From IMG/VR virus record IMGVR_UViG_2706794664_000004: a stretch of DNA of 27,702 nt. The stretch is one strand, 5' to 3'. Both the position numbers and the translations under genes were made by a program. Position 1 is the stretch's first letter, and each line of letters begins with the position of its first letter. The notes under the pieces are model-generated. The model saw only the letters and a list, made by a program, of their open reading frames with translations, made no database searches and was not told the DNA's origin. Of the stretch, positions 7,638 through 26,357 are shown piece by piece. Source of the DNA: a virus (taxonomy: Duplodnaviria > Heunggongvirae > Uroviricota > Caudoviricetes).

Positions 7638-10600
7638 ATGGGAAAAGGTGGCGGTAAGGCACACACGCCTCGTGAGGCGAAGGATAATCTCAAATCCACG
7701 CAGATGATGAGCGTGATTGATGCGATTGGTGAGGGACTGATAGAAGGTCCGGTGAAGGGACTGCAGAGTATCCTGGTGAACAAAACCCCGCTGACGGACA
7801 CGGACGGTAATCCCGTGATACACGGTGTGACGGCGGTCTGACGCGCCGGGGAGCAGGAGCAGACACCACCGGAAGGCTTTGAGTCCTCCGGTGCTGAAAC
7901 CGGACTGGGCGTGGAAGTGACGAAGGCAAAACCGGTGACGCGCACCATTACGTCCGCGAACATTGACCGCCTGCGGGTTACCTTCGGGGTGCAGTCACTG
8001 GTGCAGACCACGTCAAAGGGTGACCGAAACCCGACATCCGTCCGCCTGCTGATTCAGTTACAGCGTAACGGTAACTGGGTGACAGAAAAGGATGTCACCA
8101 TTAACGGCAAGACCACCTCGCAGTTTCTGGCGTCGGTGATTCTGGATAATCTGCCTCCCCGTCCTTTTAACATCCGGATGGTCCGGGAGACAGCGGACAG
8201 CACCACGGACCAGCTGCAGAATAAGACGCTGTGGTCGTCATACACCGAAATCATCGATGTGAAACAGTGCTACCCGAACACGGCCATTGTGGGGCTGCAG
8301 GTGGATGCGGAGCAGTTCGGCGGCCAGCAGATGACGGTGAACTACCATATCCGCGGTCGCATCATCCAGGTGCCGTCAAACTATGACCCGGAAAAACGCA
8401 CGTACAGTGGTATCTGGGACGGTAGCCTGAAACCGGCATACAGCAACAATCCGGCCTGGTGTCTGTGGGACATGCTGACTCACCCGCGCTACGGCATGGG
8501 AAAACGTCTGGGGGCGGCGGATGTGGACAAGTGGGCGCTGTATGCCATCGGGCAGTACTGCGACCAGACGGTCCCGGATAGTTTCGGGGAGACCGAGCCG
8601 CGGATGACCTTCAATGCGTACCTGGCACAACAGCGTAAGGCATGGGACGTGCTCAGTGATTTCTGCTCGGCGATGCGCTGTATGCCGGTATGGAACGGCC
8701 AGACGCTGACGTTTGTTCAGGACCGCCCGTCGGATGTGGTGTGGCCGTACACCAACAGCGATGTGGTGGTGGATGATAACGGCGTGGGTTTCCGCTACAG
8801 CTTCAGTGCCCTGAAGGACCGGCACACGGCGGTGGAGGTGAATTATACCGACCCGCAGAACGGCTGGCAGACCTCCACGGAACTGGTGGAAGACCCGGAA
8901 GCCATACTGCGCTACGGACGCAACCTGCTGAAGATGGACGCGTTCGGCTGTACCAGCCGCGGTCAGGCCCACCGTGCCGGACTGTGGGTGATAAAGACCG
9001 AACTGCTGGAAACGCAGACGGTGGATTTCACGCTCGGGTCTCAGGGGCTGCGGCACACACCCGGTGACATCATTGAAATCTGTGATAACGACTATGCCGG
9101 GACCCTGACCGGCGGACGTGTCCTGTCCATTGATGCTGCCACCCGCACTCTGACGCTGGACCGTGAAGTGACACTTCCGGAGACCGGTGCCGCCACGGTG
9201 AACCTGATTAACGGCAGCGGTAAGCCGGTGAGTGTGGACATCACCGAACACCCCGCGCCGGACCGGATACAGGTCAGTACCCTGCCTGATGGTGTGGAGA
9301 CATACGGGGTGTGGGGACTCTCCCTGCCGTCACTGCGCCGTCTCCTGTTCCGCTGTGTCTCCGTCCGGGAAAACACGGACGGCACCTTTGCCATCACGGC
9401 GGTGCAGCACGTACTGGAAAAAGAAGCCATCGTGGATAACGGTGCCCGCTTTGAGCCGCAGTCAGGTTCCCTGAACAGCGTCATCCCACCGGCAGTGCAG
9501 CACCTGACGGCCAGTATCTGGCGCAGGCGAAATGGGACACGCCGCGGGTGGTGAAGGGTGTGCGCTTCAGTCTGCGCCTGACCAGTGGTAAGGGAACGGA
9601 TGCCAGACTGGTGACCACCGCCATCACCGCAGACACGGAGCACCGTTTCAGCGGCCTGCCGCTCGGGGAATACACCCTGACGGTGCGGGCGATAAACAGC
9701 TATGGCCAGCAGGGTGAACCTGCCACCACCACCTTCCGGATTGCCGCACCGGCAGCACCGTCGCGGATTGAGCTGACGCCGGGCTATTTTCAGATAACCG
9801 CAACGCCGCATCTTGCCGTTTATGACCCGACGGTACAGTTTGAGTTCTGGTTCTCGGAAAAGCGGATTGCGGATATCAGGCAGGTTGAAACCAGCGCCCG
9901 CTATCTTGGCACGGCGCTGTACTGGATAGCCGCCAGTATCAATATCAAACCGGGCCATGATTATTATTTTTACGTTCGCAGTGTGAACACCGTTGGCAAA
10001 TCGGCATTCGTGGAGGCTGTCGGTCGGGCGAGCGATGATGCGGAAGGTTACTTGGATTTTTTCAAAGGAGAGATAGGGAAAACACATCTGGCTCAGGAGC
10101 TGTGGACGCAGATTGATAACGGTCAGCTTGCGCCTGACCTGGCTGAAATCAGGACGTCCATTACGGATGTCAGCAATGAAATCACGCAGACTGTCAATAA
10201 GAAACTGAAAGACCAGAGTGCGGCAATCCAGCAGATACAGAAGGTTCAGGTTGATACAAATAATAATCTGAACAGCATGTGGGCTGTGAAGCTGCAACAG
10301 ATGAAGGACGGACGCCTTTATATTGCGGGTATCGGTGCCGGTATTGAGAATACGCCAGCAGGAATGCAGAGTCAGGTGCTGCTGGCGGCAGACAGGATTG
10401 CGATGATTAATCCTGCGAATGGCAACACAAAGCCGATGTTTGTTGGTCAGGGCGATCAGATATTCATGAACGACGTGTTCCTGAAACGCCTGACGGCTCC
10501 CACCATTACCAGCGGCGGTAATCCTCCGGCATTTTCCCTGACACCGGACGGAAAACTGACCGCTAAAAATGCAGATATCAGTGGCAGTGTGAATGCGAAC

Positions 10601-11089
10601 GCCGGGACGCTCAACAATGTCACAATTAATGAGAACTGTCAGATTAAGGGGAAACTGTCAGCCAACCAGATTGAAGGCGATATAGTCAAAACAGTGGGTA
10701 AGGCTTTTCCGCGGGACTCCCGGGCACCGGAGCGGTGGCCATCAGGGACCATTACCGTCAGGATTTATGACGATCAGCCTTTTGACAGGCAAATTGTTAT
10801 TCCGGCGGTGGCATTCAGCGGCGCTAAACATGAGCGGGAGAATAACGATATTTATTCGTCATGCCGCCTGATAGTACGGAAAAACGGTGCTGAAATTTAT
10901 AACCGTACCGCGCTGGATAATACGCTGATTTACAGTGGTGTTATTGATATGCCAGCTGGTCGCGGCCACATGACGCTGGAGTTTTCGGTGTCAGCATGGC
11001 TGGTGAATAACTGGTATCCCACAGCAAGTATCAGCGATTTGCTGGTTGTGGTGATGAAGAAAGCCACCGCAGGCATCAGTATCAGCTGA
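7638..11089 (+). pseudogene. J: central tail fibre / host specificity protein, lambda gpJ homologue, disrupted by an in-frame TGA (7839-7841) and a frameshift near 9506-9515
   Basis: Three ORF pieces (7638-7841, 7911-9554, 9548-11089) are collinear with lambda gpJ from MGKGGGKAHTPREAKDNLKSTQ to the C-terminus. Frame 0 continues in homology through the TGA (TAV*RAGEQEQTPPEGFESSG). Homology switches from frame 0 (PPAVQHLTA) to frame 2 ([17 protein letters not shown]) near 9510. Confidence 0.8.
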
Positions 11090-11911: not shown

Positions 11912-14539
11912 ATGACAGTAAAAATTTCTGGCGTGCTTAAAGATGGCACAGGAAAACCAGTACAGAACTGCACCATTGTGCTGAAGGCCAGACGAACCAG
12001 CAGCACGATGGTGGTGAACACGGTGGCCTCTGAAAATCCGGATGAAGCCGGACGTTACAGCATGGATGTTGAGCATGGTCAGTACAGCGTCACCCTGCTG
12101 GTTGAAGGTTTTCCGCCTTCACATGCCGGGACCATTACCGTCTATGAAGGTTCCAGACCAGGTACGCTGAATGATTTTCTCGGTGCCATGACGGAGGATG
12201 ATGTCCGACCGGAGGCACTGCGCCGCTTTGAGCAGATGGTGGAAGAGGTGTCACGTAACGCCTCCGCGGTTGCACAGAATACGGCAGCCGCGAAAAAATC
12301 AGCCAGCGAGGCGGCAACTCATGCAACCGATGCTGCAGCCTCAGCACGTGCCGCCAGCACGTCAGCCGGACAGGCCGCGTCGTCGGCTCAGTCAGCGTCT
12401 TCCAGCGCAGGAACGGCATCGACAAAGGCCCGTGAAGCAGCAAAAAGTGCTGCTGCAGAGTCATCAAAAAGCGCGGCAGCTACCAGCGCCAGTGCCGCGA
12501 AAACGTCAGAAACGAATGCCGCAGCATCACAAAAATCGGCAGCCACTTCTGCATCCACAGCGACCACGAAGGCGTCAGAAGCTGCCACCTCGGCACGGGG
12601 TGCGGCGGCCTCAAAAGAGGCAGCGAAATCTTCAGAAACGAATGCATCATCAAGTGCCAGTAGTGCAGCTTCCTCGGCAACGGCGGCAGGAAATTCCGCG
12701 AAGGCGGCAAAAACGTCCGAGACGAACGCTAAGTCTTCTGAAACAGCAGCGGGACAGAGCGCCTCAGCTGCGGCAGGTTCAAAAACAGCGGCTGCATTAT
12801 CTGCCAGTGCCGCGTCAACAAGTGCCGGGCAGGCCTCAGCCAGTGCCACCGCCGCCGGAAAATCGGCAGAAAGCGCCGCATCATCCGCTTCAACAGCCAC
12901 AACGAAGGCTGGCAAAGCCACTGAGCAAGCCACTGCAGCAGCGAGGTCTGCTTCTGCAGCAAAAACCTCTGAAACAAATGCAAAGACTTCAGCAGACAAT
13001 GCTGCTTCCTCTAAGGCAGCAGCCGCATCGTCAGCCAGTTCAGCGGCGTCATCGGCATCATCTGCGTCTGCTTCAAAAGATGAGGCGACCAGACAAGCGT
13101 CAGCAGCGAAAGGTAGTGCCACGACAGCAACAACGAAAGCATCAGAGGCGGCAGGCAGTGCGACGGCTGCATCTCAGAGCAAAGTTGCTGCTGAATCCGC
13201 GGCAACGCGCGCCGAGACAGCAGCAAAACGGGCAGAGGATATTGCATCCGCCGTGGCGCTGGAGGATGCGAGCACGACGAAAAAGGGGATAGTACAGCTC
13301 AGCAGTGCGACCAACAGCACTTCCGAGTCACTGGCGGCAACGCCAAAAGCGGTTAAGGCGGTAATGGGTGAAACGAACAAGAAAGCGCCCTTAAATAGTC
13401 CTGCACTGACCGGAACGCCAACAACACCAACTGCGCGACAGGGAACGAATAATACCCAAATCGCAAGCACGGCTTTCGTTATGGCTGCGATTGCCGCCCT
13501 TGTAGATTCGTCACCTGATGCACTGAACACGCTGAACGAGCTGGCTGCGGCGCTGGGCAACGACCCGAATTTTGCGACCACCATGACTAACGCGCTTGCG
13601 GGTAAGCAACCGAAAGATGCCACTCTGACGGCGCTGGCGGGGCTTGCTACTGCGGCAGACAGGTTTCCGTATTTTACGGGGAATGATGTCGCCAGCCTGG
13701 CAACCCTGACAAAAGTCGGGCGGGATATTCTTGCGAAATCGACCGTTGCTGCCGTTATCGAATACCTCGGTTTACGAGAACTCGGCACAAGCGGGGAGAA
13801 AATACCGTTACTCAGTACAGCGAATACCTGGACTAATCGACAAACATTCAGCGGTGGCCTTTCTGGTGAACTATCCGGCAATGCTTCTACAGCTGCAAAA
13901 TTAAAAACTGCCAGGAAAATAAGCAATGTGGCTTTTGATGGTTCCTCCGATATCACATTAAAAGCAAGTCATGTTGGTGCGTTTGCCTTAGGGAAAACAG
14001 GAAGCACCGTTGCGAATGATAAAGCAGTTGGATGGAACTGGAGTAGCGGAGCCTATAACGCAACTATTAGTGGTGCATCAACGTTAATTATTCATTTTTA
14101 TATGGGAGAAGGAAGTTGTCCTGCAGCTCAGTTTCGGATTAATTATAAAAATGGCGGTATTTTTTATCGTTCAGCCCGTGATGGTTATGGTTTTGAAGCC
14201 GACTGGTCCGAATTTTACACCACCAGAAAACCTTCAGCAGGAGATGTTGGTGCACTGCCGTTATCTGGTGGTCAACTGAATGGTGCACTGGGTATCGGAA
14301 CATCCAGTGCTCTTGGCGGTAATTCGATTGTATTGGGTGATAATGACACGGGCTTTAAACAAAAAGGCGATGGTAATCTGGATGTTTATGCTAATAACGT
14401 CCATGTTATGCGCTTTGTCTCCGGAAGCATTCAAAGTAATAAAACCATAAATATTACGGGACGTGTTAATCCCTCGGATTACGGTAACTTTGATTCCCGC
14501 TATGTGAGAGATGTCAGACTTGGCACACGAGTTGTTTAG
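11912..14539 (+). CDS. stf: side tail fibre protein Stf (constant N-terminal part plus fused cassette v1), ended early by in-frame TAG at 14537-14539
   Basis: 875-aa ORF; N-terminus MTVKISGVLKDGTGKPVQNCTIVLKARRTS resembles lambdoid Stf proteins; long Ala/Ser/Thr-rich repeat region; C-terminal part shares modules with the downstream fibre cassettes. Crossover site A lies at codons for VIEYLGL (13754-13774). Confidence 0.85.
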   Translation: MTVKISGVLKDGTGKPVQNCTIVLKARRTSSTMVVNTVASENPDEAGRYSMDVEHGQYSVTLLVEGFPPSHAGTITVYEGSRPGTLNDFLGAMTEDDVRPEALRRFEQMVEEVSRNASAVAQNTAAAKKSASEAATHATDAAASARAASTSAGQAASSAQSASSSAGTASTKAREAAKSAAAESSKSAAATSASAAKTSETNAAASQKSAATSASTATTKASEAATSARGAAASKEAAKSSETNASSSASSAASSATAAGNSAKAAKTSETNAKSSETAAGQSASAAAGSKTAAALSASAASTSAGQASASATAAGKSAESAASSASTATTKAGKATEQATAAARSASAAKTSETNAKTSADNAASSKAAAASSASSAASSASSASASKDEATRQASAAKGSATTATTKASEAAGSATAASQSKVAAESAATRAETAAKRAEDIASAVALEDASTTKKGIVQLSSATNSTSESLAATPKAVKAVMGETNKKAPLNSPALTGTPTTPTARQGTNNTQIASTAFVMAAIAALVDSSPDALNTLNELAAALGNDPNFATTMTNALAGKQPKDATLTALAGLATAADRFPYFTGNDVASLATLTKVGRDILAKSTVAAVIEYLGLRELGTSGEKIPLLSTANTWTNRQTFSGGLSGELSGNASTAAKLKTARKISNVAFDGSSDITLKASHVGAFALGKTGSTVANDKAVGWNWSSGAYNATISGASTLIIHFYMGEGSCPAAQFRINYKNGGIFYRSARDGYGFEADWSEFYTTRKPSAGDVGALPLSGGQLNGALGIGTSSALGGNSIVLGDNDTGFKQKGDGNLDVYANNVHVMRFVSGSIQSNKTINITGRVNPSDYGNFDSRYVRDVRLGTRVV
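12260..13260 (+). repeat. Ala/Ser/Thr-rich imperfect tandem repeats inside stf (motif AAKTSETNA recurs four times)
   Basis: Translation SAAKTSETNAAASQKSAATSA / AAKSSETNASSSASSAASSA / AAKTSETNAKSSETAAG / SAAKTSETNAKTSADNAASS; corresponding DNA repeats gc.aaaac.tc.ga.ac.aa.gc. Confidence 0.7.
13755..13780 (+). other. invertase crossover site A (gix/pix-like, 26 bp) inside stf
   Basis: TTATCGAATACC-TC-GGTTTACGAGAA; reverse complement of site B is identical over 21 bp; resembles Mu gix (TTATCCAAAACCTCGGTTTACAGGAA) as I recall it. Confidence 0.7.
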
Positions 14540-14689
14540 ACCATGAAGAAAGGCGTGATGTATGAAAAATCAGGCCATGTAATCACGGGGCTTGGTATTA
14601 TCGGTGAAGTCGATGGTGATGATCCGGCAGTATTCAGACCAATACAAAAGTTAATTAACGGAACATGGTATAACGTATCGCAGGTATAA
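14540..14689 (+). other. displaced C-terminal 49 codons of stf cassette v1, downstream of the in-frame amber
   Basis: Same frame as stf reads [49 protein letters not shown] (TAA 14687-14689), homologous to the C-termini of cassettes v2, v3, v4 (...RPIQ..INGTWYNxxSx*). Confidence 0.75.
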
Positions 14690-14691
14690 TC

Positions 14692-15225
14692 ATGCAGCAT
14701 TTAAAAAACATTGTCGCAGGTAATCCAAAAACCGTTGAACAATACCAGCTAACAAAGAATTTTGATGTTATCTGGTTATGGTCCGAAGATGGAAAAAATT
14801 GGCATGAGGAATTAAAAAACTTTCAGGAGGATACAATAAAACTGGCTTACACAGTTGAGGGAATAATTATTGCTATAGACAAGGATGTATCAGCAATTAA
14901 TCCAGAAGGTTTAAGTGTCGTTGAGTTGCCTGATATTACAGCAAATCGCCGGGCTGATATTTCGGGCAACTGGATGTTCAAAGATGGTGCGGTGATAAAG
15001 CGAACTTATACCGAGGAAGAGCAAAGGCAACAAGCGGAAAATGAAAAGCAGAGCCTGCTGCAGCTCGTCAGGGATAAAACCCAGCTGTGGGACTCTCAGC
15101 TACAGCTGGGCATCATTTCCGATGAGAATAAACAAAAATTAACCGAGTGGATGCTCTATGCGCAGAAGGTTGAATCCACAGACACCTCCAGCCTGCCAGT
15201 AACGTTTCCCGAACAACCAGAATGA
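14692..15225 (+). CDS. tfa: tail fibre assembly protein Tfa (partner of cassette v1)
   Basis: 177-aa [43 protein letters not shown]...[10 protein letters not shown]...; Tfa-family motifs; immediately after the fibre C-terminus. Confidence 0.85.
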
Positions 15226-15300
15226 GAGAAGGCCCGCTATCGGGCCTTAATTTTTATTCAGGCTTTTGTGGCCATTCAGGATTTGCCGTATCCACACGGC
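14929..15300. repeat. direct repeat copy 1 (tfa 3' half plus shared terminator plus 3' end of minus-strand tfa)
   Basis: About 370 bp, roughly 90% identical by eye to 17998-18369 (for example cctgatattacagcaaatcgccgggctgatattt... and aaggcccgctatcgggccttaatttttattcaggcttttgtggccattc). Confidence 0.8.
15229..15258. terminator. bidirectional intrinsic terminator between convergent tfa genes
   Basis: AAGGCCCG-CTAT-CGGGCCTT followed by AATTTTTATT; sits between the + tfa stop (15225) and the minus tfa stop (15254). Confidence 0.6.
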
Positions 15301-15782: not shown

Positions 15783-16696
15783 TTAAACACTCCCCACGTT
15801 GTACCATATTCCCCCAATCAATTTCTGAATTGGCCTTCTGGCAACAGTGTCGACAATATCATCCGCATTGCTGTTAATTGCGGCTGTTAAAACATAACCT
15901 GACGCATCGCCAAAGCCGTAGTCGCGCCATACGTTTTTATATTCAATGCTGCCAAGACGAATATCCCGAACGACATGATTATGCAGCCATGTGCTTAACC
16001 AGTTGTTTTCCCACACTGAACCATAAATATCGCCACTAGACGCAACTTGCGCACCACTTCCCAGCGCAAATCCCCCATCTGTTTTAAAAATGAAATCACC
16101 ACCACCATCTGAACCGTTATTAATATGAACACCATCACCACCGTTATCTTTCCACAAAAACATACGAATTCTTCCGTCTTCGTTGGCGAATGTAATGTGG
16201 TGGCGGTAATTACTTTTTAATCTAAAATTGCTGCCATTAGATTCAATATCTTTATAAAGATGTAATCCTAACTCATCAATATGTCCGATACGCGAACCAT
16301 TTGAATAGAAGCTAATAATACCATCTCCATCTTGCCTAAATCCGGTGTCGTTATCTCCCAGAACAATGGAGTTTTCACCCAGTGCGTTATCAGTAGCTCC
16401 AATAGCTAGACCTCCTTTAATTTTGGCCCCGTGGCTGACAGATATAGCACCTGTTCTCAGATTTATAGCGAATGGCCTTAATGGGCCGATATTACCGTTT
16501 TCGCCTTGTCCTTCAGCCGTCGGAATGAAATGAAGAAAATCTTCTGAACGACGGAAAATTAGACCGAAGGTATCATTGAAAATTCGCAGCGCATTCACCG
16601 TGCCAATTTTCAGTTCTCCGGTCATTTTATCGCCGGAACGCTGAACGGCGTTACCAGCCTTGTTTACCGTTTCCTGTAAACCGAGGTATTCGATAA
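15783..16696 (-). CDS. silent alternative tail-fibre C-terminal cassette v2 (no own start; 5' end is crossover site B)
   Basis: Minus-strand frame reads [41 protein letters not shown]...[18 protein letters not shown]; first 8 residues identical to the Stf junction peptide; upstream is N-run. Confidence 0.75.
16671..16696 (-). other. invertase crossover site B (inverted relative to site A)
   Basis: + strand TTCCTGTAAACC-GA-GGTATTCGATAA; reverse complement TTATCGAATACCTCGGTTTACAGGAA. Confidence 0.7.
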
Positions 16697-16981
16697 CGGC
16701 NNNNNNNNNNNNNNNNNNNNNNNNNNNNNNNNNNNNNNNNNNNNNNNNNNNNNNNNNNNNNNNNNNNNNNNNNNNNNNNNNNNNNNNNNNNNNNNNNNNN
16801 NNNNNNNNNNNNNNNNNNNNNNNNNNNNNNNNNNNNNNNNNNNNNNNNNNNNNNNNNNNNNNNNNNNNNNNNNNNNNNNNNNNNNNNNNNNNNNNNNNNN
16901 NNNNNNNNNNNNNNNNNNNNNNNNNNNNNNNNNNNNNNNNNNNNNNNNNNNNNNNNNNNNNNNNNNNNNNNNNNNNNNNNG

Positions 16982-17758
16982 GAGAGTCAGGGAGCATTTA
17001 ACCATCCTTACTGGATGTGCAAAGGCTCATGGGCTTATGCAAATAATAAGGTCATTACAGATACAGGTTGCGGAAATATTTGTCTTGCAGGTGCTGTGGT
17101 GGAAGTTATTGGCACTCGCGGCGCAATGACCATACGCGTTACCACGCCGAGCACGTCCAGCGGTGGCGGAATTACTAACGCTCAATTCACTTATATTAAT
17201 CATGGTGATGCTTACGCTCCTGGCTGGCGACGAGACTACAACACGAAAAATCAACAACCTGCATTTGCTTTAGGGCAAACAGGAAGCACTGTCGGAAATG
17301 ATAAAGCTGTTGGCTGGAACTGGAATAGCGGGGTCTATAACGCAAACATTGGTGGCGCATCGACATTAATCCTCCACTTCAATATGAATACGGGGAGCTG
17401 CCCTGCTGTACAGTTCCGCGTGAATTACAGGAACGGCGGTATTTTTTATCGTTCAGCGCGTGATGGTTATGGCTTTGAAGCTGACTGGTCAGAGTTTTAC
17501 ACCACAACCCGCAAACCCTCTGCGGGAGATGTTGGTGCATATACGCAGGCAGAATGTAACTCAAGGTTTATTACAGGTATTCGCCTTGGTGGTCTGTTAT
17601 CTGTTCAGACATGGAATGGTCCCGGATGGTCTGACAGGTCAGGTTATGTTGTTACCGGTTCCGTTAACTCAAACAGAGATGAACTAATTGATACAACTCA
17701 GGCAAGGCCAATTCAGTATTGCATTAATGGGACGTGGTATAACGCGGGGAGTATTTAA
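16982..17758 (+). CDS. alternative tail-fibre C-terminal cassette v3 (+ orientation; 5' end and presumed crossover site inside N-run)
   Basis: Open frame from 16982 (ESQGAFNHPYWMCKGSWAYANN...) to TAA 17756-17758. Central module AFALGQTGSTVGNDKAVGWNWNSGVYNANIGGASTLILHFNMNTGSCPAVQFRVNYRNGGIFYRSARDGYGFEADWSEFYTT is about 85% identical to stf v1; C-terminus RPIQYCINGTWYNAGSI. Confidence 0.75.
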   Translation, partial: ESQGAFNHPYWMCKGSWAYANNKVITDTGCGNICLAGAVVEVIGTRGAMTIRVTTPSTSSGGGITNAQFTYINHGDAYAPGWRRDYNTKNQQPAFALGQTGSTVGNDKAVGWNWNSGVYNANIGGASTLILHFNMNTGSCPAVQFRVNYRNGGIFYRSARDGYGFEADWSEFYTTTRKPSAGDVGAYTQAECNSRFITGIRLGGLLSVQTWNGPGWSDRSGYVVTGSVNSNRDELIDTTQARPIQYCINGTWYNAGSI

Positions 17759-17760
17759 CG

Positions 17761-18294
17761 ATGATGCACTTAAAAAACATTTCTGCTGGTAATCCTGAAA
17801 CAAAAGAGCAATACCAGCTAACGAAACAATTTAACATCAAATGGCTTTATACAGAGGATGGGAAAAACTGGTATGAGGAACAAAAGAACTTTCAGCCTGA
17901 TACGTTGAAAATGGTCTATGACCACAACGGCGTTATTATTTGTATTGAAAAGGATGTTTCAGCAATTAATCCGGAAGGCGCAAGCGTCGTTGAGGTTCCT
18001 GATATTACAGCAAATCGCCGGGCTGATATTTCAGGTAAATGGATGTTCAAAGATGGCGTAGTGATAAAGCGAACTTATACCGGGGAAGAGCAGAGGCAAC
18101 AAGCGGAAAATGAAAAGCAAAGCCTGCTACAGCTCGTCAGGGATAAAACCCAGCTATGGGACTCACAGCTACGGCTGGGCATTATTTCCGACGAGAATAA
18201 ACAAAAATTAACCGAGTGGATGCTCTATGCGCAGAAGGTCGAATCCACAGACACCTCCAGCCTGCCAGTAACGTTTCCCGAACAACCAGAATGA
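17761..18294 (+). CDS. tfa: tail fibre assembly protein Tfa (partner of cassette v3)
   Basis: 177-aa [43 protein letters not shown]...; C-terminal half near-identical to the tfa at 14692-15225. Confidence 0.85.
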   Translation: MMHLKNISAGNPETKEQYQLTKQFNIKWLYTEDGKNWYEEQKNFQPDTLKMVYDHNGVIICIEKDVSAINPEGASVVEVPDITANRRADISGKWMFKDGVVIKRTYTGEEQRQQAENEKQSLLQLVRDKTQLWDSQLRLGIISDENKQKLTEWMLYAQKVESTDTSSLPVTFPEQPE

Positions 18295-18369
18295 AACAAG
18301 GCCCGATATCGGGCCTTAATTTTTACTCAGGCTTTTGTGGCCATTCTGGCTTTGCCGTATCCACACGGC
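17998..18369. repeat. direct repeat copy 2 (paralogous to 14929-15300)
   Basis: See copy 1; ends at N-run 18370. Confidence 0.8.
18298..18327. terminator. bidirectional intrinsic terminator between convergent tfa genes (paralogue of 15229-15258)
   Basis: AAGGCCCG-ATAT-CGGGCCTT followed by AATTTTTACT. Confidence 0.6.
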
Positions 18370-18910
18370 NNNNNNNNNNNNNNNNNNNNNNNNNNNNNNN
18401 NNNNNNNNNNNNNNNNNNNNNNNNNNNNNNNNNNNNNNNNNNNNNNNNNNNNNNNNNNNNNNNNNNNNNNNNNNNNNNNNNNNNNNNNNNNNNNNNNNNN
18501 NNNNNNNNNNNNNNNNNNNNNNNNNNNNNNNNNNNNNNNNNNNNNNNNNNNNNNNNNNNNNNNNNNNNNNNNNNNNNNNNNNNNNNNNNNNNNNNNNNNN
18601 NNNNNNNNNNNNNNNNNNNNNNNNNNNNNNNNNNNNNNNNNNNNNNNGCCCGGCGATTTGCTGTAATATCAGGAACCTCAACGACGCTATAACCTTCAGG
18701 GTTAAGCGTGGAGGCATCTTTGGTGATGGCGACAATAATATTATTTGCATCGTAAACAATCTTTATTGTGTCTGGCTGAAAGTTCTTCACTTCCTCATAC
18801 CAGTTTTTTCCGTCCTCAGAGTAAAGCCAGATGACTCCGTGCTTCTTTGTTAACTCATACTGCTCCACTGTTTTAGCATTACCTGCTTTTATGTTCTTTA
18901 AGTGCATCAT
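18323..18910 (-). CDS. tfa: tail fibre assembly protein Tfa (partner of cassette v4); middle hidden in N-run
   Basis: Minus-strand ORF, likely start ATGATG 18905-18910 ([40 protein letters not shown]...), C-terminus [14 protein letters not shown]. Confidence 0.75.
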
Positions 18911-18911
18911 A

Positions 18912-19940
18912 TTAAATACTCGCCACATTATACCAAGTGCCATTTATATACTTTTGCACTGGCCTGTAATGAACGCCTGCAATATTATCGGCAGAGTTTT
19001 TTCCGGTATCCTGTACGTTAATCCCCGTCAGTACATAGCCTGACGGGCACTGAAAATTCCATGTTTGCCAGTTGTTCACTCCATAATATTGCTGTGAACC
19101 AAGTCGAACATCTTTCACATATCTGGAATCAAAATTGCCATAGTTGCCGGGAATAACTTGCGAGCCGCAAAGCCAGTTCCCGTTATTATCCATGTACGCC
19201 TGACCATCGGTGCCATTGGCTGTCCTTGAGTTATTAATCATGTAGATGCCAAATTGCTTATTTCCCAGACCGCCAATCATAAATTTGCGGTCGGCATGGT
19301 CCTGACGGAGCAAAGCCTGAGCACCATCAGTGGATACCGCATTACGTCCCAAAATAACATTCTGGTCACGCATATGAATCCACATGCCGGTACTACTGTT
19401 AATTGCAAAACGGTTTGCAAATATATCCCCTGTAACATCAAGACCATGCCCCATGCTTATCCGGCCAGTTCTGAGATTAAGCGTAAAGGGGCGTAGTGGC
19501 CCTATATTACCATTTTCCCCTTCATTCTCTCGTGTAGGGATGATATGCAGGCATTCTTCAGAACGACGAAAAATGGCACCAAAAGATGAATTAAATATCC
19601 TCAGTGCATTGACTGTCGATATTTTCACTTCACTGCTGAAAAGGGCTTCAACAAGAACAGACAAAGCATTCCATTTAAGATTCATCAGGTCTTTAGGCCG
19701 GGTGCCAATGATGCGGTGTCTCCATTTGAAATATTCATTGCCGTTGTTGCCTGTTTCAAACCACATGTAGGAATCGGTGTCTGCATCCGAATTATTTTTA
19801 AACCCAATCTTTGCCCAGTCAGTATTTCGAATCCAGGCAAGGATTGAGTCGTTTTCAAAAGTAAGTCCACCGGACAACGTATCGCCATTTTTTTGCACGG
19901 CGTTACCAGCCTTGTTTACCGTTTCCTGTAAACCGAGGTT
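18912..19940 (-). CDS. silent alternative tail-fibre C-terminal cassette v4 (no own start; reaches into crossover site C)
   Basis: Minus frame reads [31 protein letters not shown]...[18 protein letters not shown]; an in-frame TAA (+ 19941-19943) lies just upstream, so it is only translated after fusion to stf. ORF track starts at internal Met (19898). Confidence 0.75.
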
Positions 19941-19948
19941 TTAGATAA
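19923..19948 (-). other. invertase crossover site C (gix-like, next to the invertase gene)
   Basis: + strand TTCCTGTAAACC-GA-GGTTTTAGATAA, one mismatch from Mu gixL as I recall it; same orientation as site B, inverted relative to site A. Confidence 0.75.
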
Positions 19949-20002: not shown

Positions 20003-20590
20003 GTGCTGATTGGCTATGTAAGGGTATCAACAAATGACCAGAATACAGACCTGCAACGAAACGCTCTTGTTTGTGCAGGATGTGAACAAATATTTGAAGA
20101 TAAATTAAGCGGGACAAAGACAGACCGACCGGGATTAAAACGCGCTTTAAAGCGCCTTCAAAAAGGTGACACGCTGGTTGTCTGGAAACTGGATCGCCTC
20201 GGGCGAAGCATGAAACATCTGATTTCTCTCGTCGGGGAACTACGGGAGCGAGGAATTAATTTTCGCAGTCTGACCGACAGCATAGATACATCTTCTCCAA
20301 TGGGGCGTTTTTTCTTCCACGTGATGGGTGCCCTGGCTGAAATGGAACGTGAATTAATTGTTGAACGTACACTGGCCGGACTGGCGGCAGCACGCGCACG
20401 GGGGCGCACAGGCGGACGTCGACCGAAGCTGACAAAAGAACAGCATGAGCAAATAGCAAGGCTGATCAAAAACGGGCACGACAGAAAACAACTGGCAATA
20501 ATTTACGGCATTGGTATATCGACGATTTATCGTTACCACCCCGCAGGAGAATCAATCGGAACAATAGAGAAGAGTCAGGAAACAAAATAA
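20003..20590 (+). CDS. pin: site-specific DNA invertase, serine recombinase of the Pin/Gin/Hin/Cin family
   Basis: GTG 20003 with SD GGGAGA 6 nt upstream; VLIGYVRVSTNDQNTDLQRNALVCAGCEQIFEDKLSGTKTDRPGLKRALKRLQKGDTLVVWKLDRLGRSMKHLISLVGELRERGINFRSLTDSIDTSSPMGRFFFHVMGALAEMERELIVERT... is near-identical to E. coli Pin from memory; catalytic Ser in YVRVST. ORF track extends 6 codons upstream to TTG 19985. Confidence 0.9.
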   Translation: MLIGYVRVSTNDQNTDLQRNALVCAGCEQIFEDKLSGTKTDRPGLKRALKRLQKGDTLVVWKLDRLGRSMKHLISLVGELRERGINFRSLTDSIDTSSPMGRFFFHVMGALAEMERELIVERTLAGLAAARARGRTGGRRPKLTKEQHEQIARLIKNGHDRKQLAIIYGIGISTIYRYHPAGESIGTIEKSQETK

Positions 20591-20625: not shown

Positions 20626-21120
20626 TCAGAACAACCCTTTAACTGAACTGGCCGCGCTGTTAAGGGATGATGTTACCTTATCTTTGAAGCCGGACAGCAT
20701 ATCGCTGAACGATGAGGATTGCAGGCGCTCCCGCAAATCCTCATCACAGCGTTCAAGAGTCAGTGAAAATTCTATCTTTTTCGCCTTACCGTAGCGATCA
20801 AACTCGGAGCGGGTCGTATTCGTTTCGGTCAGGACATACATGCCGTAAATCTGCCCGACGCCATCAATCAGAGGCCAGGGTCGTCCTGTATACGCCTGCG
20901 TGGTCAGCAGCGACAGCGACACTTCGCCACCTGTAATTTCAGGATAAAGCACACCAGAAAGAACGATGCGCTCATCACCTGCACCGATATACTGCCAGCT
21001 TGCCGAACGGTTAACGCGTTCATTTTTCACATGCCGCCAGCTTTTGTTTTGCTGTAACTGCTGATGCGGCAATGTACGCAGCTCAAAAACAAACATGCCG
21101 TAGATCATCATCATGGCCAT
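20626..21120 (-). CDS. U: P2 gpU-like tail protein
   Basis: 164-aa minus ORF MAMMMIYGMFVFELRTLPHQQLQQNKSWRHVKNERV...GVLYPEITGGEVSLSLL...KKIEFSLTLERCDED..., SD GAGGAG; position after tape measure as in P2. Confidence 0.8.
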   Translation of the reverse strand: MAMMMIYGMFVFELRTLPHQQLQQNKSWRHVKNERVNRSASWQYIGAGDERIVLSGVLYPEITGGEVSLSLLTTQAYTGRPWPLIDGVGQIYGMYVLTETNTTRSEFDRYGKAKKIEFSLTLERCDEDLRERLQSSSFSDMLSGFKDKVTSSLNSAASSVKGLF

Positions 21121-21126
21121 GACTCC

Positions 21127-23910
21127 TCAATCTTTATCGTAAAAACTGCCACGCCCGGCACGGGCGCGCCGTTCCATTTCTGCCCTGACCATTTCACCGA
21201 CCAGTTTCGCCAGTTCGCGGGGATTCTGCGTAACAACGTTATGCAGATGAACATGAATTTCACCACCAAATCCGGAGGCAACAGGCTCCCGGTTACGGGA
21301 AGTTACAGGAACTGATGCCACTGGAGAGCGTATGGCCTCCGCCACCGGGCGGGAGCTGGCCGCAACAACAGGGACCAGCGCCGGAGGCAGCGGAGCCGGG
21401 ACCACGGGTGTGATATTAATTGCGGGGGCAGGCTTACTGACCTGCGCAATCTTCCGCTCCTGCCACTCCCCACGAACAGCAAGTGCGCGGGGCAGGTTCT
21501 TAAAGACAATATCGCCGGGGCCAATGCGTTTTTTCGTCTCATCAACCAGCTTACCTGTGTTATCAGCAATTTTGCTGAGTCTGCGTAGCGTCCCGGTATT
21601 GCTGTCTGTGAGCGGTTTGTTGTCTTTGGGTTTATCACCTCCGGTGCCATTGCCATTTTCCACAGGCTTCGGCGGATTGATTTTCGCCAGGTCCCCCTGA
21701 AGCAAGGCAACCTTGTCCTGAAGAATGGCCGCACGCTGTGCGTCTTCGATTTTCTTGCGCGCCCTTTCCGCTTCATCCGGAAGGACGCCAAGTTTTTCAA
21801 GTATCCACGCCAGCGTATCCAGTAGCATTTTTGCAGGTGTCAGAACAAGTTGTAACGCACCGCCAAGAACGTTACCGAATATCTCGCCAGCACTGGCACA
21901 TTTATCCAGCGTTTCCTTGCTGGACTCCATCGGTGACAGCAGCGATTTAAACCAGTTAAAGACCTGAATAATCCCATCGCGCACGACATCAAAAACAGGG
22001 CCAAACCGTTCAAAGGTTTCGCGCAACGGGGTCAGCCTTTCCATAATCCCGCTGAACACCCCGGCAAAAAATGCCCTGATGGGATCCCAGTATTTCCAGA
22101 TAAGAACGGCAGCTCCGGCAAGCGCAGCCACGATAAGACTAACCGGACTGAACAGCGCCCCGATAGCGCCACCAAGTAAAGAAACGGAACCCGTCACCAT
22201 TCCCCATAATGCAGGCAGAACCCTGACAACATTCATTGATTCGGTCAGGAGAGAAAAACCGAGACGCAACGTAGCCAGCTTCCCGTGAAGCACCCCAATA
22301 ACCAGAGACAACGAACCAACCGTTGCTGTTGTCGCCAGCAGTGCGCCTCCCGCTATCAGTAACTGGCGCGTCAGTGCCGGGTGGGCCTGCGCCAGCGCCG
22401 TCACCTTTGAGACAACCCGCGTGAGCCACTGCGTGACAGAACGCAGCGGACCGTCAACCAGATCACTGATGCGAATACGCAGACCTTCCCATGCACTGCC
22501 GAGTGATTTCAGGTTGCCATCAAGGTTATTGGCCATAACCTTTGCCGTGCGTTCTGCCTCACCGCGCGCGCCTTCAAGTTCTTTTCTCAGTTTGGCTAAG
22601 AAGCCGTCACCTGCCGCATCAACGAGGCCCATAAATGATGTGAAAGCCTCTTCTCCGGCAATGTCCTTAAAGAACGATACCCGGTCAACCTCCCCGTATT
22701 TGCGGGTGGCTTTATAGAGATCGGCCAGCACATTCTCCATCGGGCGCATTTTGCCTTTGGCGTCAGCAACTGACACCCCCAGCTCTTTCAGTGCTTCTGC
22801 CGCTGCCTTTGGCGGTGATGACAGATTGGCCAGGCTTTTACGCAACGCTGTACCTGCATCACTCCCCCTGATACCCATCTTCGCCAGCACGCCCGCCATC
22901 GCTGCGGCCTGCTCCAGCGATATTCCCAGCTTACCCGCCACCGGACCTGCATATTTCATGGTTTCGCCCAGTGCGCGAAGGTCAGTGTTGGTACGGGTAA
23001 ACGCTGCGGTAAGTGTGTCACCGACCCGGTCCATCTGGTCAGCAGAGAGGCCGAACTGCGTCAGGATATTGGAACCAATATCCGCCGTCTCGCCGAGGTC
23101 CATACCGCCAGCCGTTGCCATGCTCAGCACGCCGGGAAGCGCAGCCTGAATGGCCTGCGGTGTGAAACCAGCCATTGCAAGAAATGCCTGTCCACTGGCG
23201 GCATCGCCTGCGGTGAACTGCGTTTCAGAGCCAAGTTTTAACGCCTGCTCACGCAGCGCCTTAAACTGCGGGCTGTTTTTATCGATTCGCGTCAGTGCCT
23301 GAACACGGGACATCTCTTTCCCGAACCCGATAGCGGGCTGCAAAAAACGCCCGGCAGCATAGCCGCCCGCTGCCGCCGCACCTGTTGCCAGCGCACCACC
23401 TGTTTTCAGTTNNNNNNNNNNNNNNNNNNNNNNNNNNNNNNNNNNNNNNNNNNNNNNNNNNNNNNNNNNNNNNNNNNNNNNNNNNNNNNNNNNNNNNNNN
23501 NNNNNNNNNNNNNNNNNNNNNNNNNNNNNNNNNNNNNNNNNNNNNNNNNNNNNNNNNNNNNNNNNNNNNNNNNNNNNNNNNNNNNNNNNNNNNNNNNNNN
23601 NNNNNNNNNNNNNNNNNNNNNNNNNNNNNNNNNNNNNNNNNNNNNNNNNNNNNNNNNNNNNNNNNNNNNNNNNNNNNNNNNNNNNNNNNNNNNNNNNNNN
23701 NNNNNNNNNNATCAGCTTTTGTTGTTTTTCGCTGAGCACTGTACCCGTGCGTTGTAACTGATTAAGGGCGTTAAGCTGGCGTCGTGCTTTCACGATGCCC
23801 GCATCCGCTTTACTGACAGCGTCACGGGCGCGCTCAAATGAACGCGCCTGACGCTCGAGATTTTTGATCGCCCCCTGCGTTCGCTGGATGGAGTCACCAA
23901 ACTGCCCCAT
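21127..23910 (-). CDS. T: tail tape measure protein (P2 gpT-like); part hidden in N-run
   Basis: 927-aa minus ORF, N-terminal coiled-coil-like MGQFGDSIQRTQGAIKNLERQARSFERARDAV..., Gly/Ala-rich hydrophobic segments (LKTGGALATGAAAAGGYAAG...), length and position typical of a myovirus tape measure. Confidence 0.85.
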   Translation of the reverse strand: MGQFGDSIQRTQGAIKNLERQARSFERARDAVSKADAGIVKARRQLNALNQLQRTGTVLSEKQQKLXXXXXXXXXXXXXXXXXXXXXXXXXXXXXXXXXXXXXXXXXXXXXXXXXXXXXXXXXXXXXXXXXXXXXXXXXXXXXXXXXXXXXXXXXXXXXXXXXXXXXLKTGGALATGAAAAGGYAAGRFLQPAIGFGKEMSRVQALTRIDKNSPQFKALREQALKLGSETQFTAGDAASGQAFLAMAGFTPQAIQAALPGVLSMATAGGMDLGETADIGSNILTQFGLSADQMDRVGDTLTAAFTRTNTDLRALGETMKYAGPVAGKLGISLEQAAAMAGVLAKMGIRGSDAGTALRKSLANLSSPPKAAAEALKELGVSVADAKGKMRPMENVLADLYKATRKYGEVDRVSFFKDIAGEEAFTSFMGLVDAAGDGFLAKLRKELEGARGEAERTAKVMANNLDGNLKSLGSAWEGLRIRISDLVDGPLRSVTQWLTRVVSKVTALAQAHPALTRQLLIAGGALLATTATVGSLSLVIGVLHGKLATLRLGFSLLTESMNVVRVLPALWGMVTGSVSLLGGAIGALFSPVSLIVAALAGAAVLIWKYWDPIRAFFAGVFSGIMERLTPLRETFERFGPVFDVVRDGIIQVFNWFKSLLSPMESSKETLDKCASAGEIFGNVLGGALQLVLTPAKMLLDTLAWILEKLGVLPDEAERARKKIEDAQRAAILQDKVALLQGDLAKINPPKPVENGNGTGGDKPKDNKPLTDSNTGTLRRLSKIADNTGKLVDETKKRIGPGDIVFKNLPRALAVRGEWQERKIAQVSKPAPAINITPVVPAPLPPALVPVVAASSRPVAEAIRSPVASVPVTSRNREPVASGFGGEIHVHLHNVVTQNPRELAKLVGEMVRAEMERRARAGRGSFYDKD

Positions 23911-23939
23911 CAGGCGGCGGGCGTTTTCGGCAGGCCGGG

Positions 23940-24449
23940 TCAGCCTGTCAACGGCGCTGAAAGCGACCCGGATATCAAGAGTCNNNNNNNNNNNNNNNNN
24001 NNNNNNNNNNNNNNNNNNNNNNNNNNNNNNNNNNNNNNNNNNNNNNNNNNNNNNNNNNNNNNNNNNNNNNNNNNNNNNNNNNNNNNNNNNNNNNNNNNNN
24101 NNNNNNNNNNNNNNNNNNNNNNNNNNNNNNNNNNNNNNNNNNNNNNNNNNNNNNNNNNNNNNNNNNNNNNNNNNNNNNNNNNNNNNNNNNNNNNNNNNNN
24201 NNNNNGTCGCGGTGATGTCACGCGTGACAGCAGCGTAAACATGGATTCCGCTTTCAAATTCAGCACATCAGACAGCGACAAATCTCGCAGAGATCCAGCC
24301 TGCTCAATAGCCCCGGTGATCTCCACATACGTGATTTTTTCGCCGCCTCGCTCAATTGGTTGGGTAAGTTTTACGCCACGCTCACTGGTTTCTTTCACAG
24401 TGTCAGCAACGACCGTGTTTTCGGTATCGATGTTTTTCGTCTCTTTCAT
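23940..24449 (-). CDS. E: tail assembly chaperone (P2 gpE/E+E'-like); 3' two-thirds inside N-run, end approximate
   Basis: Visible N-terminus MKETKNIDTENTVVADTVKETSERGVKLTQPIERGGEKITYVEITGAIEQAGSLRDLSLSDVL..., SD AAAGGAG; small gene between tube and tape measure as in P2. Confidence 0.6.
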   Translation of the reverse strand: MKETKNIDTENTVVADTVKETSERGVKLTQPIERGGEKITYVEITGAIEQAGSLRDLSLSDVLNLKAESMFTLLSRVTSPRXXXXXXXXXXXXXXXXXXXXXXXXXXXXXXXXXXXXXXXXXXXXXXXXXXXXXXXXXXXXXXXXXXXXXXXXXXXLLISGSLSAPLTG

Positions 24450-24503
24450 CAGGAAACTCCTTTCAGTCAGAGGCGACGCACTGCGCCGCCTGCATATTAC
24501 TTA

Positions 24504-25016
24504 TCAGCCAAGCCCGAGCGCGGAACGGATGCGATCGGGCACAATGTCCCTGCCGTCCTTCCGGTAAATGAAGTTCAGCAGGTCAATCTCCCACAACGGG
24601 CGATCGTTAACACTCAGCTTGTAGTAGGTGTTTTTAATGGCGTAAGTGTGTGATGTGGCTTCGCCCTGTTTGGCTTCCCCCATATCAATTTCCGTCACAC
24701 GTCCGCGCATTTCGACTTCATACAGGTCGCTTTCAGCGTCGGTGTAGTATTCACCCGCAAAACGCAGCAGCGTACCGTCAATCGTGCCGCCATACTTAAG
24801 GAACAGCTCACGAACTGCGCCCCCCATGACAAAGCTCGCATCAAGCGCGGAGTCATCCAGGCCGAGATCAATACTTACCGCTCCCATCATGCCACCACCC
24901 CGGTAGCTGTCGGTTTTGCGCGTCAGCTTAGGCAGAGTGACGGACGTCACCTTACCCACTTCGTTTTCACCATCCACAAACAGCGTAAAAAAGCGAAGAT
25001 GTTTTGGTACAGCCAT
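24504..25016 (-). CDS. FII: tail tube protein (P2 gpFII-like)
   Basis: 170-aa minus ORF MAVPKHLRFFTLFVDGENEVGKVTSVTLPKLTRKTDSYRGGGMMGAVSIDLGLDD...; start overlaps FI stop (ATGA). Confidence 0.85.
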   Translation of the reverse strand: MAVPKHLRFFTLFVDGENEVGKVTSVTLPKLTRKTDSYRGGGMMGAVSIDLGLDDSALDASFVMGGAVRELFLKYGGTIDGTLLRFAGEYYTDAESDLYEVEMRGRVTEIDMGEAKQGEATSHTYAIKNTYYKLSVNDRPLWEIDLLNFIYRKDGRDIVPDRIRSALGLG

Positions 25017-26200: not shown

Positions 26201-26357
26201 AGCTTCAACCCCTTGTATCCGTTAAATGATTCGGCAACAATCATCACCCACCACGCGCGTAATCTCACCCCTGCGCCATTCTCCCGCCACGGCGACAACA
26301 AAAAGCAGTAACCCCCTCCGCACGCACATGCGACCATGCCACACAGGGAGGGAGCAG

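Follow-up and report, generated by a model that had tools for sequence, protein, structure and literature searches.

The gene for the side tail fiber (stf) of this prophage region stops at an amber codon in a reading frame that otherwise stays open, which raises the question of whether a once intact fiber has been cut short by mutation and, if so, what the lesion means for the prophage and its host. The window, the whole 27,702-nucleotide stretch that was analyzed, is an entire draft contig of Shigella sonnei (CWSV01000046.1) from a short-read assembly, and its features are listed in Table 1. The reading that we favor, with a probability of about 0.93, is a plain loss-of-function CAG to TAG nonsense mutation in variable cassette v1 of stf, which belongs to a cryptic lambdoid S. 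sonnei prophage.

Table 1. Features of the window that bear on the stf amber codon.
Feature	Position	Strand	Basis
Tail tip gene J, pseudogene	7638..11089	+	TGG>TGA at 7839-7841; 22-bp deletion ~9511
stf, truncated side tail fiber gene, 875 aa	11912..14539	+	ORF list; Pfam PF08400 at residues 1-134
26-bp Pin/Gin-type crossover site, TTATCGAATACC TC GGTTTACGAGAA	13755..13780	+	Inverted repeats I10, I11; site scan
Amber codon TAG, from CAG (Gln) via C>T at 14537	14537..14539	+	Alignment and haplotype table
Orphaned final 49 codons and TAA of fiber tip	14540..14689	+	Called as 48-aa ORF, ATG 14543
tfa1, v1-cognate tail fiber assembly protein, 177 aa, intact	14692..15225	+	Pfam Caudo_TAP E = 4.8e-34; ORF list
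tfa2, cassette v2 assembly protein, 175 aa	15254..15781	-	Gene call, Pfam Caudo_TAP, ORF list
Cassette v2, intact, with inverted crossover site 16671-16696	15783..16696	-	Translation; sites
Cassette v3 (5' part masked) and tfa3	16982..18294	+	v3 matches PDB 8JU3
tfa4 (partly masked), cassette v4 (intact), inverted crossover site 19923-19948	18323..19948	-	Translation; sites; P2-like prophage context
Serine invertase, Pin family, 195 aa, intact	20003..20590	+	Gene call; PF00239 Resolvase 1.5e-50, PF02796 HTH_7 1.8e-13

The interrupted frame and its ancestral codon

The 5' portion of stf is the constant part of a lambdoid fiber gene (prophage_tail_N), joined to cassette v1, and intact stf relatives encode proteins of 918-934 aa. 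Past the amber codon, the stf frame remains open for 49 sense codons and closes at TAA 14687-14689, with tfa1 beginning 2 nt beyond this natural stop. An open run of 49 codons would be expected by chance about once in 10 cases ((61/64)^49 ~0.095), so the run by itself could be fortuitous, and it is homology that decides that the downstream frame is real. The tail that read-through would add is the same, residue for residue, as the C-terminus found in intact relatives. The 48-aa ORF called within it gives a weak match to Pfam Phage_fiber_C and is on record as 'putative tail fiber protein (GpH) [Shigella sonnei]'.

Structural homology points to what the fiber would lack. Residues 235-310 of the query align to residues 424-502 of the 504 in Mu S (PDB 5YVQ; E = 5.2e-16), with the lost 49-residue segment falling on Mu S residues ~450-502 in that structure. 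These 49 residues carry most of the invariant columns in the alignment of v1-v4, including the SG-V-T and RP-Q--I-G-WYN motifs common to v2, v3, and v4. By homology, the lost tip belongs to the distal fiber domain of the Mu S/P2 gpH type. Mu Tfa attaches to the fiber at its distal receptor-binding domain (PMC9608196, PMC7291167). Because the invariant tip motifs are lost and the segment is homologous to this Tfa-capped Mu S domain, the truncated fiber would be non-functional. The initial annotation had described a stop at TAG with the same frame open to TAA and a downstream module homologous to the other cassettes, and had placed a nonsense mutation within the conserved distal domain. The coordinates and frame were verified, the shared motifs bear out the homology, and the ancestral CAG and the alignment of the tail to the Mu S C-terminus agree with the nonsense mutation.

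Alignment with relatives, which had been proposed as a way of identifying the original codon, gives CAG (Gln). All four aligned intact relatives (4/4) have CAG together with an ORF that runs unbroken to a point just short of tfa, and CAG with read-through also occurs in 23 viral contigs. Among the relatives with CAG at the affected codon are the prophage copies in E. coli and gpH of Yersinia phage L-413C, a functional phage; phage relatives, including L-413C gpH, are annotated as intact fibers. A natural stop at this position, the alternative that had been raised against a nonsense mutation, was found in no relative outside S. sonnei among the aligned relatives and the 23 viral contigs. Two CAG-bearing contigs place the change at a single base. 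One (L030) differs from the TAG haplotype across 13751-15225 only at 14537, and the other (L029), which covers 14026-15225, differs from the window solely at the same base. Because both match the cassette of the window save at 14537, the sequences indicate that TAG arose as one recent C>T transition.

Spread of the amber allele in a defective prophage

A mutation private to this isolate was ruled out by a scan of viral contigs and by exact-protein look-ups, which found the lesion across S. sonnei. TAG is shared by six independent IMG/VR isolate contigs and is present in complete chromosomes from several projects (among them 53G HE616528, CP023645, CP044151, and CP044191). The 48-aa ORF that it creates was found in at least 1000 contigs (2201 index blocks), complete S. 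sonnei chromosomes among them, and the resulting 203-aa ORF is also on record in at least 1000 contigs. The TAG contigs are all attributed to S. sonnei by their record names. The CAG form of the identical haplotype is a minority (27 contigs, 47 blocks), also in S. sonnei. A 27-mer containing the TAG was absent from GTDB species representatives and from JGI metagenome contigs, and the exact TAG 61-mer occurred in 0 of 5426 complete E. coli genomes, three collections in which Shigella is not included. Judged from these records, the lesion is lineage-wide in S. sonnei, with one origin inside or at the base of the clone. Public annotations already show it, those of the reference genomes Ss046 and 53G among them: complete chromosomes have the TAG allele annotated as two small ORFs. 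A literature search for an account of the stf amber lesion found none.

The prophage that carries this lesion is defective in other genes as well. Aligned to its 97.9% identical counterpart in E. coli FDAARGOS_1255, which is intact and encodes 1157 aa, the tail tip gene J is a pseudogene with both a nonsense codon and a deletion. Both J lesions are also found in CAG-bearing S. sonnei contigs (L053, L054, L056, and L057) and, being common to TAG- and CAG-bearing contigs of the species, they predate the stf amber. In complete genomes, the lambdoid prophage additionally has IS elements and only a 60-aa stump of its own invertase. Because J is dead, the amber codon has no consequence for virion production, and neither a suppressor nor inversion would restore a working virion. 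The stf amber is probably neutral decay, and its significance is small: a cryptic prophage has gained another point lesion through ordinary gene decay. S. sonnei is a species known for accumulating pseudogenes.

The sequence of events that we propose is that J would have been lost first, with the TAG arising once afterwards and then spreading with the S. sonnei clone. Where v1 is in the fused orientation, translation would halt 49 codons early, giving a product without the last strands of the Mu S/P2 gpH-type distal domain, which is normally capped by its cognate Tfa. Such a product should not fold or trimerize into a receptor-binding tip, and translational coupling to tfa1 would probably be weakened by the early termination. 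Pin-type inversion at the 26-bp site would bring in the intact v2, and the lesion would thereby leave the expressed gene.

Cassette inversion and assembly layout

The crossover site within stf sits inside codons at the boundary between the constant and variable parts of the gene. Of the three crossover sites of the window, in the order of Table 1, the first is on the + strand and the other two, on the - strand, are inverted relative to it; the frame is kept, with v2 in frame with its own site and v4 also in frame by translation. Both orientations of the segment occur in complete genomes. One arrangement (L043) joins Lc to R1 and Lp to R2, and the other (L039) joins Lp to R1 and Lc to R2, a reciprocal exchange of half-sites at the site center. 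The fused proteins have 875 aa in the L043 orientation and 918 aa in the L039 orientation. The intact 918-aa Stf-v2 fusion is present in L039, L041, L044, L029, and L030, and intact fusions of this length exist in strain 53G. At least 1000 S. sonnei contigs carry the TAG cassette silently oriented, versus 73 with the fused 875-aa form.

These observations affect several claims of the initial annotation. It had treated the TAG copy as the expressed one, a status that is unsupported given that most S. sonnei genomes hold the v1 cassette in the silent orientation. Its suggestion that inversion to v2 bypasses the lesion is confirmed by flipped S. sonnei genomes, which encode the intact Stf-v2 fusion. 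The second route that it had offered, inversion to v4, presupposes an arrangement of the contig that is probably an artefact of joining, with v4 lying in a separate P2-like prophage in complete genomes. As the local invertase of the lambdoid prophage is a stump and yet both orientations are found, inversion in trans appears to occur, and the Pin of the P2-like prophage likely acts on the lambdoid segment. In E. coli K-12, PinQ flips the e14 segment, an instance of the invertase of one prophage acting on another (PMC12529663).

Complete genomes place v3, v4, and the intact pin in the P2-like prophage; there, v3 and tfa3 supply the distal portion of a 656-aa P2-like gpH and the accompanying Tfa. 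The four-cassette layout of the window is therefore probably two two-cassette systems joined by assembly. Repeat regions of the contig show signs of collapse or mis-joining. A gapped pattern search of viral contigs for the masked v2'-v3 junction (16701-16980) returned 0 matches, and another copy of the contig (L034) has the same masks. Because the layout of the cassette region is not fully trustworthy, v1 can be called the fused cassette of this isolate only tentatively. Where draft contigs cross Pin-type invertible fiber regions common to two prophages, cassette order is not to be trusted.

Alternative readings and related systems

The draft nature of the contig, with its signs of repeat collapse or mis-joining, could suggest a sequencing or assembly error, with C at 14537 in reality and an intact gene in the isolate. 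The recurrence of TAG in independent isolate contigs and in complete chromosomes of several projects, along with the 48-aa and 203-aa ORFs in at least 1000 contigs each, makes the probability of such an error negligible. Another reading is that stf is naturally split, with the 48-aa ORF made by termination-reinitiation and its product joining the 875-aa protein as a two-piece tip. The ATG at 14543 comes 3 nt after TAG, gene-calling programs list the 48-aa ORF, and the TAG allele is very frequent in S. sonnei. However, this ATG is a conserved internal Met of the uninterrupted fiber, and in the 20 nt upstream of it a Shine-Dalgarno match reaches GAG at best. The flanks do not differ by a single base from the CAG allele, hence show no adaptation to a split, and a stop at this codon was present in no relative outside S. 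sonnei that was examined. High frequency is expected of any mutation in a young clone, and the prophage is unable to make tails regardless, leaving a split gene highly improbable. Useful production of full-length Stf-v1 through a host amber suppressor or leaky UAG decoding has a similarly slim chance. The 49 downstream codons, a point in its favor, are still fully intact, but the recency of the mutation accounts for this. The context around TAG is unchanged from the CAG allele, the stop is not conserved (all non-S. sonnei relatives examined have CAG), and no tRNA gene was found in a scan of the window. Wild enterobacteria seldom carry amber suppressors.

Selection could also have favored the inactivation, either by removing a harmful v1-tipped fiber or through a host function gained by the truncated protein, such as the receptor masking reported for e14 StfE2. 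TAG has come close to fixation in S. sonnei, with the ancestral CAG surviving in a minority, the lambdoid segment still inverts, apparently in trans, and Stf chimeras from cryptic prophages inverted by Pin can block T2 adsorption in E. coli K-12 (PMC12529663). Against this stand the single origin, without recurrent mutations, the clonal hitch-hiking that accounts for the frequency, and the silent orientation of the TAG cassette in most genomes, where it is unable to act. We consider selected inactivation very unlikely. A shade less probable again is the broader idea that the amber is non-neutral, the 875-aa fiber, made once a Pin enzyme of another prophage has turned v1 into the expressed position, having been co-opted by S. 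sonnei (for example, as a decoy at the surface or in the periplasm that changes phage adsorption, as is reported for e14 StfE2) or a functional two-piece tip being made via ATG 14543; if this were true, the near-fixation of TAG in S. sonnei would reflect selection. No differences were seen over the orphaned 49 codons among the TAG sequences, and S. sonnei is too young and uniform, with zero tail differences, for dN/dS to distinguish neutrality from selection.

A simple nonsense lesion, as we favor for the S. sonnei stf, can be compared with lambda PaPa, in which a frameshift in stf relative to Ur-lambda leaves two adjacent ORFs with tfa intact downstream (PMC7291167). In both cases, a single inactivating lesion has struck a lambdoid side tail fiber gene and left tfa intact. 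The PaPa lesion is a frameshift in a viable phage whose J works, whereas that of S. sonnei is an amber 49 codons from the end, in an invertible cassette of a prophage with a dead J. In E. coli K-12, the cryptic prophages e14, Rac, and Qin (stfE/stfP/stfR, tfa, pinE/pinR/pinQ; P-segment inversion) share with the S. sonnei prophage a defective lambdoid character, the stf constant part, and alternative cassettes with tfa. They retain a Pin-family invertase, and fiber pseudogenes are common in them. The S. sonnei locus differs in adjoining trpCBA and in having different cassettes, and its lesion is a point nonsense mutation, not a deletion or fusion.

The invertible systems of Mu (G segment; S/U, S'/U', Gin), P1 (C segment; Cin), and p15B (Min; multiple inversion) resemble the S. 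sonnei locus in having a 26-bp crossover site within the fiber gene where its constant and variable parts meet, Sv-tfa cassettes in convergent arrangement, and a serine invertase built of Resolvase and HTH_7 domains, and the S. sonnei distal domain is homologous to that of Mu S. In contrast, those systems belong to phages or plasmids that are functional and have every cassette intact, while S. sonnei has one nonsense cassette in a defective carrier. The v1 cassette shows ~92% DNA identity to the tip of L-413C gpH, and the v1 tip and tfa1 show 91-93% DNA identity to the gpH/gpG tip of L-413C and several P2-like prophages. L-413C and the P2-like phages carry this tip on a P2-type gpH of a contractile tail, without the invertible arrangement and without the stop.

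The C>T at the stf codon is a clean marker separating the majority of S. sonnei from the CAG-bearing minority. In annotation, the 203/875-aa and 48-aa ORFs should be merged as one pseudogene.

An amber codon in the distal side tail fibre

The initial annotation placed an amber codon in the side tail fibre gene (stf) of the lambdoid prophage, within its fibre-tip cassette v1, and its coordinates and quoted peptides proved exact. Past the TAG, the stf frame stays open for 49 sense codons to a TAA at 14687-14689. An open run of this length has a chance of about 0.1 and is not unusual alone; what decides the matter is its homology. A megablast search with 14200-14720 against complete E. coli genomes and phage records returned 145 and 18 near-full-length matches, respectively, and among the matches listed all were annotated as a single tail fibre gene followed by the assembly gene tfa. 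To establish the ancestral codon, as had been proposed, we aligned four relatives to the window: two copies from lambdoid prophages of E. coli (98% identical to it), the gpH of Yersinia phage L-413C, and a P2-like prophage of E. coli. All four have CAG (Gln) at the critical codon, and their reading frames continue to a stop just ahead of tfa, which upholds the reading of a nonsense mutation. A pattern scan of IMG/VR found CAG in 23 contigs and TAG in six. Across v1 and tfa1 (13751-15225), contigs L005, L006, L008, and L010, four of the six other TAG sequences, differ from the CAG contig L030 at 14537 only, which is also the sole difference between the window and contig L029 (covering 14026-15225). 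The lesion is therefore a single recent C>T transition without accompanying change around it.

Features of the lambdoid and P2-like prophage regions in the window
Feature	Coordinates	Strand	Remarks
J pseudogene	7638-11089		TGG>TGA at 7839-7841; 22-bp deletion near 9511 (versus intact J)
stf ORF, 875 aa	11912-14539	+	closed by TAG 14537-14539
Crossover site, 26-bp Gin/Pin-type	13755-13780	+	within codons AVIEYLGL(R/Q)E
tfa1 start	14692		2 nt after natural stf stop TAA
Crossover site, 26-bp Gin/Pin-type	16671-16696	-	within codons AVIEYLGL(R/Q)E
Crossover site, 26-bp Gin/Pin-type	19923-19948	-	within codons AVIEYLGL(R/Q)E
Intact Pin invertase of P2-like prophage	20003-20590
P2-like tail genes U, T, E, FII, FI	20626-26200	-
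gpD-like gene	26226-27467	+

Aligning the C-termini of cassettes v1-v4 with two intact v1 relatives places the stop five residues past an invariant R-L-G, inside the conserved distal domain as first described. The lost module is indeed homologous to those of the other three cassettes: the truncation removes the motifs S-G-x-V-x-T and R-P-x-Q-x-x-I-x-G-x-W-Y-N, invariant across v1-v4. The last 76 residues of read-through v1 align to residues 424-502 (of 504) of Mu tail fibre protein S (PDB 5YVQ; E = 5e-16). In Mu, the chaperone Tfa attaches to the distal domain of the fibre, the one that binds LPS, and remains on the virion (PMC9608196; PMC7291167). The 875-aa product would be unable to form a trimeric tip, and since tfa1 lies immediately beyond the natural stop and has no strong ribosome-binding site, early termination probably lowers its translation as well.

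The v1 tip and tfa1 start (14201-14713) are 91-93% identical in DNA to gpH/gpG of Yersinia pestis phage L-413C, and likewise to several P2-like prophages, with identity dropping to about 84% over 13840-15039. A lambdoid stf has thus acquired the fibre tip of a contractile phage. The opposite cassette in NCTC86-type prophages of E. coli matches v1 as far as 14523 and differs beyond, so the last ~55 codons of v1 behave as a separate exchange module starting at the RLG motif.

Spread of the lesion and decay of its prophage

The window is the whole of contig CWSV01000046.1 (assembly GCA_001255555.1). Its 875-aa Stf protein is recorded under the name Shigella sonnei, and a 48-aa ORF is called as a separate gene only where the TAG is present. 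This ORF occurs in at least 1000 contigs (2201 index blocks), including the complete S. sonnei chromosomes 53G (HE616528), CP023645, CP044151, and CP044191. With v1 in its silent orientation, the truncated ORF is 203 aa; at least 1000 contigs have it, and the annotation of strain Ss046 includes it. The intact 253-aa CAG form, otherwise identical and also named S. sonnei, occurs in 27 contigs (47 blocks). Among 5426 complete E. coli genomes, none had an exact match to the TAG-bearing 61-mer, and the TAG pattern was not found in GTDB species representatives or in metagenome contigs. The lesion is thus real, common to most of the clone, and polymorphic inside it. It is already visible in public annotation as split ORFs. 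The initial annotation correctly read an ordinary pseudogenising point mutation, one already in reference annotations and not novel.

The TAG recurs in many independent assemblies, which rules out a sequencing error. Neither a natural split gene nor programmed read-through is supported: relatives were checked for a natural stop at this position and none was found outside S. sonnei, the surroundings of the TAG are the same as in the CAG allele, the window holds no tRNA genes, and the ATG at 14543 is a conserved internal Met of intact fibres. Nothing positive supports selected inactivation or co-option of the amber allele, and S. sonnei varies too little for selection to be tested. The pseudogenising mutation has its closest analogue in the frameshifted stf of laboratory lambda and, more generally, in the stf/tfa/pin modules that have decayed in e14, Rac, and Qin.

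The tail-tip gene J was compared with an intact 1157-aa J, 97.9% identical in DNA to the window, and carries two lesions (see table). Both are found in TAG-bearing S. sonnei loci and also in four S. sonnei contigs that keep CAG in v1 (L053, L054, L056, and L057), so J had been inactivated by the time the stf amber appeared. The lambdoid element adjoins trpCBA in complete chromosomes and contains many IS1 and IS3-family copies. The amber is most probably a further step of neutral decay in an already dead prophage, and a working tail would not be regained through a suppressor or an inversion. In several complete S. sonnei chromosomes (L036-L038, L040, and L045), insertion of an IS3-family element has shortened v2 to 104 aa and eliminated J, lom, and the constant part of stf, leaving the TAG-bearing v1 permanently silent, a later decay stage of the same prophage.

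Inversion of the fibre segment

The invertible segment is a standard system of the Mu G, P1 C, and e14 P type. Cassettes v2 and v4 are intact, each in frame with its own crossover site, and the initial annotation proposed that inversion to either would bypass the lesion. This holds for v2; the layout on which the v4 route rests is probably a scaffold artefact. Complete genomes present both orientations, with half-sites exchanged reciprocally and exactly: stf is fused to v1 in CP044151 (875 aa plus 48 aa), and to v2 in 53G and others, giving an intact 918-aa protein and a silent TAG cassette, by far the commoner state in assemblies. In complete chromosomes (L036-L045), only a 60-aa stump is left of the invertase that belongs to the lambdoid prophage, yet both orientations occur, so inversion must act in trans; the enzyme would most simply, and probably, be the intact Pin of the P2-like prophage. 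PinQ acts on e14 in E. coli K-12 in a parallel manner (PMC12529663).

Two near-identical 20-nt GC-rich palindromes, AAGGCCCGCTATCGGGCCTT (15229-15248) and AAGGCCCGATATCGGGCCTT (18298-18317), each lie between two convergent tfa genes and are likely bidirectional terminators at the invertible-segment centres.

The P2-like prophage and the four-cassette layout

In every complete chromosome examined, v3-tfa3-tfa4'-v4'-pin lies inside a separate P2-like prophage near serS, where v3 forms the distal portion of a gpH of 656 aa. Immediately upstream of the crossover site, the last ~350-480 nt of the lambdoid stf constant part (13403-13780 in the window) are almost the same in this gpH gene. Beside v2', the half-site is of the constant-side type (TTATCGAATACC), which implies that v2 is also joined to a minus-strand constant region, ~280 nt from plus-strand v3. 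Masking covers the v2'-v3 junction (16701-16980, within 16671-17015), and no other instance of it turned up in a gapped search. Within the stf constant part, six gpH-type SNPs at 13624-13662 sit inside stf-type flanks and change residues 579, 583, and 584, the product either of gene conversion from one prophage to the other or of a repeat that collapsed in the assembly. The related draft scaffolds L009 and L029 have single-N joins at exactly these stf/gpH repeats. Half-site type, SNP patch, and single-N joins together make the window's layout suspect: it is unlikely to be real. The four-cassette arrangement, and the v4 route with it, probably arose when scaffolding made a false join at a repeat common to the two prophages. 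The v2'-v3 join, if real, would imply Pin-mediated recombination between them.

The FI-U block is inverted relative to D/ogr and to H, an orientation that differs from that of phage P2 and is present in all complete genomes examined (L046-L051). Cassette v3 (17250-17758) closely resembles a chimeric chain of PDB 8JU3, 'Tail fiber protein S, S''. The hit came from a search with v1 (167 bits, over the shared central domain), and the sequence of 8JU3 is almost that of v3.
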